NCBI RefSeq assembly: GCF_006345805.1
Contig: NC_043008.1
Coordinates: forward strand, 76,632,001-76,696,000
Length of the DNA: 64,000 bases
Origin: Octopus sinensis
Taxonomy: Eukaryota
Direction: 5' to 3'
The stretch's first letter is position 1; every line of letters starts with the position of its first letter. Shown in pieces: positions 11,951 through 63,720 of this stretch. Below the pieces are notes generated by a model that was not told the DNA's origin, made no database searches, and worked only from the letters and a program-made list of their open reading frames with translations. Made by a program: the position numbers and the translations under genes.

Positions 11951-12273
11951 CATATATATATATATACACATACTTATATAGACATAGACATATATACATG
12001 CATATATACATATAGATACATATATACGTACATATAAGGCGCGCACATACATATACACACATACATACACACACACATATGTATACACACACACACAAAC
12101 ATATATATATATATATATAAAATAAATATAAGAGAGTGGTCACTATATGGCTCACTCTAGCACCAGTTAATCCAAAAGGTTTCAACCACAAAAATACATG
12201 TTTCCCATGAAAGTCAGTACGATTGTTAGCTCACACGGACAGGGCAAATAAAAAATAACAAAAATACAGATTA

Positions 12274-12355
12274 TTTTGGGACAATTGTTTCGCTATTAAT
12301 GAATTAAATGTAATTTTACTTACAAAAAAATCCACTTGTAGCTCGTCAGCCAAAA
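12274..12355 (-). ncRNA. Type I hammerhead ribozyme (intact core)
   Basis: Reverse complement of 12869-12950. Confidence 0.85.
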
Positions 12356-12868
12356 CTATCTGGATGAAATCCACTCAATCACACGCCAGATTTTACCATA
12401 ACGATAAATACGCGTGTGGTTCAATTGATTACATCCGACGTTATAATTCAAATGCCCCAACTAACAGCGCGCCAAACTTTCACGGAAAACAAAGACTGCA
12501 TTTAGAAATAAATGCAGCATAATTATAATTAATTAATAAGGGTGAGAGAATTAGATACTAATTTAATAGTATATCTATTCAACACCAAGTGGCCTAGTGC
12601 TCCGAGAAACCTGGATTATTATAATATTTTATAATATATTATAATATTTTTGCAAAATAAATATAAGAGAGTGGTCACTATATGGCTCACTCTAGCACCA
12701 GTTAATCCAAAAGGTTTCAACCACAAAATTAAATGTTTCCCATGAAAGTCAGTACGCTGTTAGTTGGGGCATTTGAATTATAACGTCGGATGTAATCAAT
12801 TGAACCACACGCGTATTTATCATTATGGTAAAATCTGGCGTGTGATTGAGTGGATTTCATCCAGATAG

Positions 12869-12950
12869 TTTTGGCTGACGAGCTACAAGTGGATTTTTTT
12901 GTAAGTAAAATTACATTTAATTCATTAATAGCGAAACAATTGTCCCAAAA
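12869..12950 (+). ncRNA. Type I hammerhead ribozyme (intact core)
   Basis: ttttgg-CTGACGA-gcta..AT-rich loop..tagc-GAAA-caattg-TC-ccaaaa. It has a 6-bp stem I, a 4-bp stem II, a palindromic minimal stem III and a GUC cleavage triplet. Confidence 0.88.
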
Positions 12951-13246
12951 TAATCTGTATTTTTGTTATTTTTTATTTGCCCTGTCCGTGTGAGCTAACA
13001 ATCGTACTGACTTTCATGGGAAACATGTATTTTTGTGGTTGAAACCTTTTGGATTAACTGGTGCTAGAGTGAGCCATATAGTGACCACTCTCTTATATTT
13101 ATTTTGTAAAAATATTATATATTATAAAATATTATAATAATCCAGGTTTCTCGGAGCACTAGGCCACTTGGTGTTGAATAGATATACTATTAAATTAGTA
13201 TCTAATTCTCTCACCCTTATTAATTAATTATATATATATATAGCGC

Positions 13247-13303
13247 AGGATTAAAATTAATCAAAGGATGTACTTAGTATGTCCTTTGATTAATTTTAAT
13301 CCT
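13247..13303. repeat. Perfect 22-bp inverted repeat (hairpin)
   Basis: AGGATTAAAATTAATCAAAGGA, a 13-nt loop, then TCCTTTGATTAATTTTAATCCT. Confidence 0.9.
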
Positions 13304-13452
13304 TCAACTATTTAATGCTTTTTGGGGACCTGCAATTGCCTATATTACTGATTCTGTCATTAACGTGTTCAACTGTTACACTAGATAATAATAGACTCAA
13401 TATATTTGCAAGTATATTTTCTCCTGAATTATTTGCTCCGTACATACGTGTG

Positions 13453-13507
<55 letters not shown>

Positions 13508-13569
13508 TGTAACGACCGTTGATGGCTGTGATATACGTGTTGATTTTGTTTGCATTTGGTTCGATGGAA

Positions 13570-14020
13570 GAATTTAAATGTGTGATAGAACCTATGACAA
13601 CAGTAGAAAAAGCTTTGTTTTATTTATTTAGTAATTGCGGTGAATTACGTACTAATATTATTTTAGGCATAGTCCACAAATGGGTCGTTGGCCTTAGTAT
13701 GAGACCCCGGAATCTATTATGGCTCAGAATATTCTGCATGGTACATTTCTACTTATTAGACGGTTTATAAGGTTGGCTAGGGAGGTAGATTTGCTATGAT
13801 CCTCATACTTAAATGAGTTTATATGTGCAGAATATCTCTCTTTAAAATTAATAGTAGATCCGATATAGCAATTAATAGAATTATGCGATATGTTGTGGAC
13901 CGTGCATTTGTATACTACGTTAAATCTTCTACAGCTGAGTGTTATTAGTGGAAAGAGATGCTACAGTACTATTTATGAAGAAATTAGAATTAAGGGTGTT
14001 GTTAGGGATTTGGCAAGTAT
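13570..14020 (-). mobile_element. Penelope-like element, GIY-YIG endonuclease remnant
   Basis: Minus strand, with frameshift and stops: CRRFNVVYKCTVHN..CYIGSTINFK/RYSAHINSFKYEDHSKSTSLANL..CGLCLK..LLNK. Confidence 0.8.
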
Positions 14021-14107: not shown

Positions 14108-16085
14108 TAGTTTTATTTTTATAGCGTGCTTTCACTTCACTACCGAGCGCAGCTCTGTGTGCCTTGGGTATGTGCTGTGATTTGTTGTGATGCTCTGATG
14201 GTTATTGTATGGAAAGTGTTCTGCGTAGGGTGTGTGCAGTGCCTAGTAGTGCAATTTTCTGTATGTTATACGTGTTTGTAAGTCCTGGTGTTTATTTTTA
14301 TGTATTTGTCTGAATATTTTTTTATCATGCCTAATGCAACTCCTATGATAGGAATTGTTTCTGTTTTCAGATTCCGCATTCTAGTTACCTCTATTTCCAG
14401 GTCTTTGTATTTTGAAAGTTTCTCCATTTCTTTTAGAGACACGTTGTCATCTGCCGGTATTGATACATCAATTAGAAAGCATTTTTTACTTCATGATCTC
14501 TGACAACTATATCTGGTCTGTTGGCCTTAATTTCTCTATCTGTGTGTATCGGCATATCCCAGAGTATGGTTGCTTTCTCGTTTTCTGTGACCTTTTCTGG
14601 TGTGTGCCTATACCATCTTTTTTCTGTTGTTATTCCATAATGTTGGCATTGCTTCCGGTGTATGTAGGTTCCAACTCTGTCATGTCTGTGAATATATTCC
14701 TTCTTAGCCAGGACTGGGCAGCCAGAGATAATATGATTTATTGTTTCTTGTCCATCATCACATATTCTGCAGTTACTTGTTATATTTCTTTTCATTACAT
14801 GTTTTTGGTAATTTCTGGTGTGGAGGCTTTGGTCTTGTGCTGCAATTAAAAATCCCTCTGTCTCTGCTTTGAGTCCTGAGCTTCTCAACCATTGCTGGGA
14901 TTTTTCTTTGTCTATTTCTTTTGCGTTTAGTTTAGTCCAGTATTTACCATGAAAGAGCTTTTCTGGCCATCGTGTTATCATGGTTCGTTGCTGTTCTATT
15001 TTTAGTTTGGATTTCATTTGTTTTATAGCTTTTGTTGTTTCTTCTTCTTCTTCTTCTTCTTCTTCTTCTTCTTCTTCTTCTTCTTCTTCTTCTTCTTCTT
15101 CTTCTTCTTCTTCTTCTTCTTCTTCTTCTTCATGTTTATTAGGTGGTATGATTTCTTGTTTGTATTTGTCAGCTTCCTTAAATACTGAGAACAGTTTTTT
15201 GTTTTGCTCGTGTTTTGCCGCTATTTGTATCAGTTTCCCTTCCTTCTGAAGTAGATATTTTTGCAGTCCTATGGTGGTTATTCTATAGTAGTTTTCCAGC
15301 TTTATAAGGCCTCTATCACCTTCTATACGTTGTATATATAGTCTTTCTATGTCAAATTTTGGGTGATGCATCCTAGATCCTGTCAGTATTTTTCTTGTTT
15401 TCCTATCTATTTTGGTCAGTTCATTTAGTGTCCAGTTAAGGATATTGTAGCTGTAACTTATAACTGGGACAGCTAAAGTGTTAATACCTATTATCTTGTT
15501 TTTAGCATTGAGCTCTGTTTTTAGTATTGATCTAACTCGTCTATAATATTCTTTTTTTTATTTTCTCTTTCATTTGTGTGTGTTGTGTCTTATCTAGTTC
15601 ATGGATTCCTAAGTATTTGTAAGTTTGGCTTTGGTCTAATTCTTTTATTTCATTGGTTTTATCTAGTGTGATGTTGTTACTCTTAACTAGTTTTCCTCTT
15701 TTCATGGTTACTTTGGCGCATTTTTCTAATCCAAATTTCATATCTATTTCTTTGGTAAATCCATGAACTGTCTTTAATAGTGTTTCCAGCTGTTTGTCAT
15801 TTACAGCGTATAGTTTTAGGTCATCCATAAATAAAAGGTGGCTGATCGTTTTGCCGTAACATTTATATCCGCATCCAGTTCTATTTAGCATATCAGATAG
15901 AGGTGACAGTGCCAAGCAGAAAAGGAGTCGGGAGAGCGTGTCTCCCTGGAATATTCCTCTTCTAATGGGGATGGCGTTGGTTTTCATGAGTCCCTTTTTT
16001 GTTTGTAGCTGTAGCACTGTTTGCCATTTATTCATAGTGCCCTATGAATTTTATAATTGTTGGTGCTACTTTGTTAATGGCTAGT
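14102..16085 (-). mobile_element. 5'-truncated Dong/R4-clade LINE (RT, CCHC and restriction-like endonuclease)
   Basis: ORF 15541-16035 has RRGIFQGDTLS and HLLFMDDLKLY. ORF 14472-15371 has CRIC..ETINHIISGC..YIHRHD..RPDIVV. It is flanked on both sides by (TAA)n, the known Dong target. Confidence 0.92.
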
Positions 16086-16389: not shown

Positions 16390-17270
16390 TAGGAAGCGGG
16401 GATGTTTATACCTTGGTTAATTCTGGTTGTAGTGCTAGGGTTGCGGGTGTGCTGCATGCCATCAATGTTGGTATTAGTGATTTTGGGGCTATGACATATG
16501 TCATGATTATGTATATTTAGTTAGTAGGAATTAAGTTTACGTTTATTGGAAGAGGTAACAATGGATTCTATATTGGGCGGAGATAATTTTATGGTAGATC
16601 TATTAGAGAATGAATGGTACATACGGTGACGTTGGAAGTTAAAGTCTACTATTTGAAAGAATGTTTTGGCTAAGCCCTAAGCGTTTAAGGCGAATGGGGG
16701 TGCAAACCAAAGAATGAATCTACCCCGCTTTTATTAGGTAAAATAGGGGAAGTATAATCTATAGTATTTGTTAGAGGAAAGTTGTCAGTTTCATTTTTGT
16801 TTATCTGCTTGAGTTTCGATCGAGTGTTATACAAGTGAGCGTAGGACTGACGAAAGTGTCTTACCCGAGGTCCTTCCAAGTTACTATCTGGGTTTTAAGA
16901 TTGTCTATTTATAGTGGAATCGTTCATTTGTCTATTAGTGGGGCGTGTCCTTTCGGGACAGAGATTAGCGATGTATTCAATTTGCAGTTAGTGCTTGGTT
17001 ATAATATGTAGCATGGTCATTGAGGATTTCTTCCGTGACCGAGATATCAAACAATCGGATAGATATGCCTTTAATTACACTATCAAAGATAGATTTATGG
17101 TGGTTAGAGTCTATGTTAACGTATCTGAGGTACTGATTAGGTTTATGGAAGGGGGAGTATAGCGAAGATTCTAAATCTGAAGTAACTTCTAGAAAGTTAG
17201 CTGTTTTTGTGTTTTCAAAACTTAGATTAAAATATATTGAAATACTAAAGAGTAAATTTATTCAATAAAA
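16390..17270 (-). mobile_element. Penelope-like element, RT thumb and linker remnant
   Basis: Minus strand: ANFLEVTSDL..YSPFHKPNQYLRYVNIDSNHHK..IRLFDIS..YNQAL, then ILWFAPPFALN and NRSTIKLS.PNIESIV. Confidence 0.8.
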
Positions 17271-57807: not shown

Positions 57808-57832
57808 CAAAGCAATTAAGTCTTATTGAAAT

Positions 57833-58040
57833 TCCTCCTCTTACCACTGGAAATGTAAATCTTCACTATGGATTAATTCACCTTTTCTGTGAAGCTAATA
57901 AGTCTTTAAAAACCTGTGATAAGTCTGTGCATCATCCTCCTCATATCTCTGGAAATTTAAATCTACACTATGGATTGATTCATCTTCTCTTCGAAACTAA
58001 TAAGTTTTTTAAAAATCTGTGATAAGACTGTGCATCATCA
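57833..58040. repeat. Tandem duplication of about 100 bp
   Basis: TCCTCCTC..CTGGAAAT.TAAATCT.CACTATGG..CTGTGATAAG.CTGTGCATCA occurs twice. Confidence 0.85.
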
Positions 58041-58386
58041 TTAAGGAACTTTGGAAAACAGTTTACAACCTATATCAGCCTCTAATGGAATTATCTCCAA
58101 TATTTCATGAGTATAGCCTCACCCACTAAGATGTCTAGAGAACTCAAATGTATTTTAGCTGATGAGTACGGGACACTTTTATCTGCTGCAATTTTTGCAA
58201 CTTGTAATAAAGCCTGTCTTTGTATGAAACAATTGTACTAAAAACTAATCCATTCTTGTTGCTTCTTTCTCGTATATATATATATATATATATATATAAA
58301 GCTTGTGTGTGTGCGCGCGTCTGTATGCGTGTGTGTATGTGTATGTGTGTGGGGGGTGTGGGGGTGAGAAAGAAAGCGAGAGAGAG

Positions 58387-63316: not shown

Positions 63317-63720
63317 CGCCAGGAAAATGTAATTTATAAATGTAGTGTTGAGACTCAAGGAGGCCAGAGAAAAATATATATTGGAAGCTCAGTAGACTTT
63401 AAGCAGAGGTATCAATCCCACCTGAGCACTTTCAACAATCCTAAATATAGGACATCTACAACATTAGCATTATATGTTAATGACCTTAAGGAAAGGAATG
63501 TTGAATTTAAATTATCGGGACTATCCTTGCACATGCCTCCTCCCCATATAGAATTGGGTCCACTAGATGCAGTTTGTGCATAAGGAAAGCATATATTATA
63601 TTGAAAAATTACAACAACGCAATGTTAAATAAATTCACTGATTCAATACCAGCGTGTACGCATAAGATCCACTCGACGTTCCATAAGAAATTTAGAAATA
63701 AAAATAGCAATAAAAGTTAG
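63317..63720 (+). mobile_element. Penelope-like element, GIY-YIG endonuclease remnant
   Basis: RQENVIYKCSVETQGGQRKIYIGSSVDFKQRYQSHLSTFNNPKYRTSTTLALYVNDLK / ..PYRIGSTRCSLCIRK..MLNKFTDSIPACTHK. Confidence 0.85.

Follow-up and report, generated by a model that had tools for sequence, protein, structure and literature searches.

The window, by which we mean the whole 64,000-nucleotide stretch of Octopus sinensis DNA that was analysed, holds at 12116-13233 a foldback with a hammerhead ribozyme on each of its two inverted arms, and this raises the question of whether the inversion is an accident of one locus or the regular form of a mobile element, and how it is made. The initial annotation explained the inversion by a template switch and described a circularly permuted unit. 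The switch is no chance event, however, nor is the permutation arbitrary: the foldback is the normal form of its family rather than a one-off switch, produced family-wide from two fixed ends, here named sites A and B. The whole two-armed insertion lies in (TA)n, with site A at its left outer end and site B at its right. Numbered on a natural reference unit (L021:967-1500), the A arm (12116-12763, minus strand, 1.2 units) runs through positions 242-534 and then 1-354 before stopping at site A, while the B arm (12755-13233, plus strand) covers positions 1-480 and stops at site B. The arms meet head to head at 12755-12763 in a 9-nt overlap common to both, which agrees with the earlier placement of the strand switch near 12755 on microhomology, and the stretch from site A (about 13105) to site B forms a plus-strand "tail" of ~130 nt (13106-13233). 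Likewise, the arms are nearly identical, as had been noted (12109-12469 and 12755-13115 are 99% complementary), and the head-to-tail repeat holds, with the A arm crossing the unit boundary at 12469-12470 (minus strand) seamlessly at a measured period of 535. Overlooked until now was that the outer ends are two fixed and different sites.

The claimed lack of an ORF and the claimed (TA)n flanks were also found to be right: no stop-to-stop frame of >=120 aa overlaps 12116-13233, the element lacks the RT plus GIY-YIG ORF of an autonomous Penelope-like element (PLE), and the insertion runs into (TA)n at either end, which would mask any target-site duplication. The GC fraction is 0.325 for 12001-14000, where non-LTR retrozymes are expected to fall under 45-50%, and in predicted folds sites A and B each lie in a small AU-rich hairpin. 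Directly after site B, at 13247-13303, there is a 28-bp inverted repeat with copies 1 nt apart. The stretch is present in 19 of 22 listed sequencing runs, from five organism codes and seven studies, and no RNA run is on record as containing it, which has no bearing on expression.

A descriptor scan confirmed the canonical type I hammerhead at 12869-12950 (plus strand, predicted cut after 12944) and its identical minus-strand copy at 12274-12355 (core at 12349, predicted cut at 12280), and in the whole 64 kb it returned these two and one unrelated hammerhead at 58159, with no others. The plus-strand motif consists of stem I TTTTGG/CCAAAA, the core CTGACGA from 12875, GAAA, a CAATTG stem III and GTC at the cut. 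Stem III is palindromic, as in the minimal type I hammerheads with which the initial annotation compared it, but the motif is not minimal in stem II, which has 4 bp plus an extension of ~50 nt. The covariance-model check proposed for it failed, as the Rfam hammerhead families gave no match either at the gathering threshold or at E<=10; the long stem II probably puts the motif outside these models. One Rfam match to U4 snRNA (13.7 bits, E=2.3) was treated as chance because it was not repeated in two sister-family loci.

In the best predicted fold of a single ribozyme, part of the core is paired with the cut site, and opening the core would cost 4.6 kcal/mol. A dimer formed through the CAAUUG palindrome with both cores open is predicted at -55.2 kcal/mol, compared with -46.0 for two active monomers, and is therefore 9 kcal/mol better than these and equal to two inactive ones. 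Since this fold leaves both cores open at a good energy, cutting is predicted to depend on dimers. The unit as a whole is also predicted to fold compactly (z=-8.15 linear, z=-6.6 circular), which is no demonstration of expression. Core positions are nearly invariant in about 340-355 scored units, with substitutions at 0.63% against 1.36% overall and the free N7 at 19%, and the variant U4C occurs in 16 units. U4C is found in four insertions (L053, L056, L064 and L146), one of them with 11 scored units, so that long arrays were still formed and this lineage has moved at least four times. According to passages of PMC3088659, U4C reduces hammerhead activity in vitro, and movement therefore probably does not require efficient cleavage.

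The family is dispersed over many contigs of the 2.7 Gb genome, with a unit of 534 nt bearing a type I hammerhead and arrays of 1-18 units. An exact-pattern count of site-B junctions gave at least 575 insertions, and a 30-nt hammerhead half was matched exactly at least 1,532 times, against 0 for its reversed control, an abundance far beyond chance. With the window arm as query, a genome search yielded 649 candidates; the 40 that were scored showed 95-99% identity. In all, 100 insertions were assembled from three samples, comprising ~40 nearest the window copy, 40 regions chosen by position on C1 and C2, the two largest contigs, and 20 long arrays. Duplicate or overlapping rows (L068, L132 and the second copy in L060) were removed before counting, and L217a, L217b and L218, which are copies of one event, remain in the 100 and were reduced to one in the haplotype, substitution and breakpoint tallies. 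Divergence from the column majority had a median of 0.83% (range 0-8.4%, 86 insertions), and (TA)4 was present at the junction in 160 of 169 A or B ends, in line with the (TA)n or AT-rich target of PLE-mobilised elements. These data support the earlier reading of a young, non-autonomous, retrozyme-like, TA-targeted element copied from multimeric or circular RNA, and we regard its classification as a non-LTR retrozyme as very probable. A sister retrozyme family (L203-L207) has a 528-nt unit ~57% identical to this one and is two-armed too; its hammerhead has a compensated stem I and a U-U at the first stem II pair. The genome also contains a family of small hammerhead foldbacks (L183-L202; about 180-270 nt, 1,709 candidates), frequently near-perfect palindromes, with two ends ~85 nt apart as judged by eye.

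In the retrozyme family the outer 3' ends occupy one of two unit positions, near 350 (A) and near 480 (B), which are separated by 130 nt. Head-to-head two-armed structures made up 73 of the 100 insertions, with A/B, A/A, B/B and atypical end pairs in a ratio of 69:0:0:4; among the four atypical cases, one is cut by a contig edge and one has an end called at 338, which was scored as A in the breakpoint analysis. The other 27 are one-armed, 20 ending at B and seven at A. The inverted 5'-truncated arm that marks PLE-mobilised copies is therefore present in 73 of 100 insertions, and the corresponding tail at one end, here about 130 nt, in 69 of the 73 with two arms. Using pattern coordinates only, we located 75 A ends and 82 B ends on C1 and C2, and 30 of the 31 divergent end pairs within 10 kb were A/B (p=1.4e-8); the lone B/B pair (L145) is two separate A/B insertions. 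A/B pairing is thus a near-strict rule across the family. Median arm lengths are 711 nt for A and 697 nt for B, both arms exceed one unit in 30 of 68 insertions, and the B arm extends past site A in 59 of 68.

The two arms of an insertion carry the same haplotype. Of 183 family-polymorphic sites in 40 informative insertions, 182 read alike on the two arms, compared with an agreement of 0.119 for shuffled pairs, and of the alleles private to one insertion 23 lie on both arms and 34 on one arm only. In the first sample, sequences diverged by 0.29% inside an arm, by 0.34% from arm to arm and by 1.06% from insertion to insertion. In L034 and L042 a unit-by-unit match between the arms is absent, which counts against a strict single-molecule template, and short-read polishing or gene conversion could have homogenised arms. 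The 68 junctions show an overlap of 2-20 nt in 29, 0-1 nt in 29, extra bases in eight and an overlap of >20 in two. Both 5' breakpoints lie within 15 nt of each other in 12 of 68 insertions (3.9 expected, p=5e-4), eight of these in one unit register, as expected if two enzymes run to one template end. Only one of 136 breakpoints is at the cut site (2.8 expected), which was passed by 54 A arms and 51 B arms in the 68 insertions; the cDNAs do not stop there, and cut linear monomers are therefore not the main template.

A candidate for the enzyme comes from the PLE family behind the second hammerhead of the window, whose ORF has the motifs of the Hydra clade as given in section 11 of PMC8557442. 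A 3' end of this clade lies at 57808-58272 (plus strand) and is used for comparison only; it has a hammerhead at 58153-58243, the short end and, inverted at about 57808-57826, a tiny arm with the long end. Autonomous copies in this genome have a 947-aa ORF with RWK, DKT and CxCX5C, and a genome search with the Hydra RT gave 10,729 candidates. In the autonomous copies the two ends are found some 35 and 155 nt past the cut, giving a ~120-nt tail, and all seven two-armed loci with both ends scored had one short and one long end; they also share a similar palindromic stem III with the retrozyme. Hydra-clade PLEs are very abundant here (window 57808-58272; L155-L182); their ORFs reach 1,124 aa, they have asparagine-rich inserts and long 3' UTRs, and they exceed the published under-3-kb elements in length. 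Decayed Hydra-like coding remnants lie in the window at 13667-13933, 16983-17231 and 63317-63663, and a broken LINE-type reverse transcriptase (RVT_1, zf-RVT) at 14472-16041 on the minus strand. Neptune-type PLEs are abundant too, with an end spacing of ~35-40 nt by eye.

One further locus, L258 (800-4050, G000:C16), places a third, 541-nt retrozyme relative that is 62% identical to the 534-nt unit and ends at an A-like site head to head with the middle of a Hydra ORF, with no TA between them and the ORF side stopping at the Hydra long end. This single old locus is possibly a mosaic insertion, in which case two RNAs can feed one event, and it could instead be two adjacent insertions. The retrozyme tail showed no significant similarity to six Hydra tails (z<=1.14), the match to Hydra being limited to about 50 nt at the 3' side of the hammerhead (78%, E=0.001), and the retrozyme had no match in 45 other loci. 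No autonomous partner carrying the retrozyme unit was found among 30 GIY-YIG loci, 15 plus eight loci of the second window hammerhead family, 20 plus 30 Hydra loci and five tail-pattern loci, a small share of the >10,000 candidates. The GIY-YIG matches in L094 and L095 resemble an SLX1-type nuclease of the host more than they do a PLE. PLE ORFs near L148, L059, L065, L137, L038, L045, L067 and the window copy were rejected as neighbours, lying beyond the 3' end, across a microsatellite or hundreds of bases off. Since the retrozyme has no ORF and no detectable tail homology, its link to Hydra consists of architecture plus one mosaic locus, and on this footing we lean slightly towards a Hydra-clade PLE as the mobiliser in trans.

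Taken as a whole, the locus is very probably a non-coding hammerhead tandem repeat, or non-LTR retrozyme, and a PLE, most likely of the Hydra clade, probably mobilises it in trans by starting reverse transcription at two fixed RNA sites ~130 nt apart; for two-site priming from both target strands by itself our confidence is good. The unit, hammerhead, TA target, two fixed ends, A/B rule and arm haplotype are read directly from the sequence, and from these we infer the remaining steps. The PLE protein would introduce a nick into each strand of a (TA)n target, and each strand would then prime one of the two sites, A or B. Both cDNAs would then run backwards along a multimeric or circular RNA, usually beyond the ribozyme cut site, stop, and be joined head to head, bluntly or through short microhomology, with a failure of one priming leaving a one-armed copy. 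With less support, cleavage by the ribozyme may be weak and occur chiefly in dimers, and circles of 2-6 units may have served as templates in some cases. In PMC11167929, purified PLE protein cuts and extends both strands, and the tail is delimited by its two internal start sites; however, the start sites were the same for the two strands in vitro, which counts against strand-specific priming.

An inverted arm could also arise from one priming and a snap-back, in which the cDNA folds on a short palindrome and copies itself and an endonuclease resolves the product at the other site, a scheme akin to the self-priming and EN-resolution ideas of PMC3846280 and PMC8557442. This would account for the shared arm haplotype and for the five near-perfect palindromic junctions with identical breakpoints (L128, L130, L139, L143 and L148), but 56 of 68 junctions are not near-palindromic and the absence of A/A and B/B has no simple reason under it. 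Furthermore, the arms are not nested in five of 68 insertions, which means that neither can be a copy of the other and that two primings on RNA are needed, and we consider snap-back unlikely. That the copies are ordinary pLTR fragments of an unfound autonomous PLE is more unlikely still, despite the abundance of PLEs in the genome and the match of Xenopus retrozymes to pLTRs described in part of 10.64898/2026.07.22.740005: not one of the 100 insertions has a PLE ORF attached in sense, and up to 18 units follow one another head to tail with no coding sequence between. Arrays do contain indel noise and the window junction is known from the assembly, yet an assembly artefact or a DNA-level satellite rearrangement would have to produce two nucleotide-precise ends at dozens of unrelated loci with differing junction points, and an A/B-type rule that holds in other families too, which is hardly credible.

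Within two-site priming, the template could take more than one form. One possibility, which we place a little below even, is that the templates are always linear, uncut read-through multimers, with the ribozyme a passenger and the arrays growing by local duplication. The mobility of the U4C lineage fits this, as does adjacent-unit sharing in L221, L224, L225 and L042, which points to local duplication; in passages of PMC11167929 hammerhead cleavage was unnecessary for PLE insertion in vitro, and in part of 10.64898/2026.07.22.740005 eight of nine Xenopus retrozyme dimers were not cleaved. Against it, the core is conserved ~twofold above background. Minor alleles recur with period 5 in L038 and L039, period 3 in L043 and L065 and period 2 in L034, and this had looked by eye like strong proof of circles; it failed a permutation test, in which 11 of the 13 informative arms (out of 46 long arms) were compatible with some period where 10.4 would be expected (combined p=0.24), a lack of significance that also suits linear multimers. 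L038 (2.8 rounds, p=0.016) and L043 (p=0.057) are nevertheless too short for an origin in place by repeated equal-offset crossover, although a longer source array could have passed the periodicity on to them. Overall, circular templates are plausible, and their use in at least some events has somewhat less than an even chance. A fuller version of two-site priming, in which a dimeric Hydra-PLE protein would hold one retrozyme RNA at two fixed hairpins 130 nt apart, prime one per target strand and roll around circles that the ribozyme has made and that contain one to six units, making the arrays direct prints of RNA circles, is doubtful as it stands. If true, the genome would document that a circular RNA of an animal can be retrotransposed, and the PLE tail and inverted repeats would find a general explanation.

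Similar joins are known from LINE-1 twin priming, where the second target strand primes an inverted arm and the join uses microhomology, as in the retrozyme; however, the second LINE-1 site varies, with the first cDNA ending close by, while both retrozyme sites are fixed and most B arms continue beyond site A. Animal non-LTR retrozymes, as described in parts of PMC7229834 and 10.64898/2026.07.22.740005, are likewise non-coding low-GC tandem units that each contain a type I hammerhead, occur as dimers to multimers and co-occur with PLEs, and the unit range of 51-972 bp given in the latter covers 534 nt. They differ in that most Octopus insertions examined are head-to-head and two-armed with two fixed ends, and in that circular RNA is demonstrated for the published retrozymes whereas the Octopus family is known here from the genome. 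The word "inverted" is absent from the main text of PMC7229834, no inverted-arm description was found in the available part of 10.64898/2026.07.22.740005, and a literature search at the level of titles and abstract openings, with few subscription journals, returned no two-armed retrozymes, no A/B pairing count and no tail >100 nt. The Hydra-clade PLEs in section 11 of PMC8557442 share (TA)n targeting and a canonical hammerhead, and those in this genome also share a ~120-nt tail and the identical short/long rule, although the retrozyme has no ORF and its tail homology is undetectable.

With PLE architecture in general, as covered in parts of PMC8557442, PMC3846280 and PMC11167929, the retrozyme shares head-to-head arms, a one-arm tail, an AT-rich target and two internal ends, but it is non-coding and tandem on both arms, and its tail of ~130 nt is three to four times as long as the published 30-40 bp. 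Retrozyme, inverted arm, tail and TA targeting were each already known singly, and the cited papers, in the passages concerned, describe the origin of the PLE inverted repeats and tail, and the enzyme that moves animal retrozymes, as open questions. Here, the arms of an insertion derive from a single haplotype, and both the exact start sites, two in number, and a candidate enzyme can be put forward, so that the mechanism can be tested directly in vitro. Where the three papers speak of an "optional" tail, hundreds of young, nearly identical insertions turn this into a near-strict A/B pairing.
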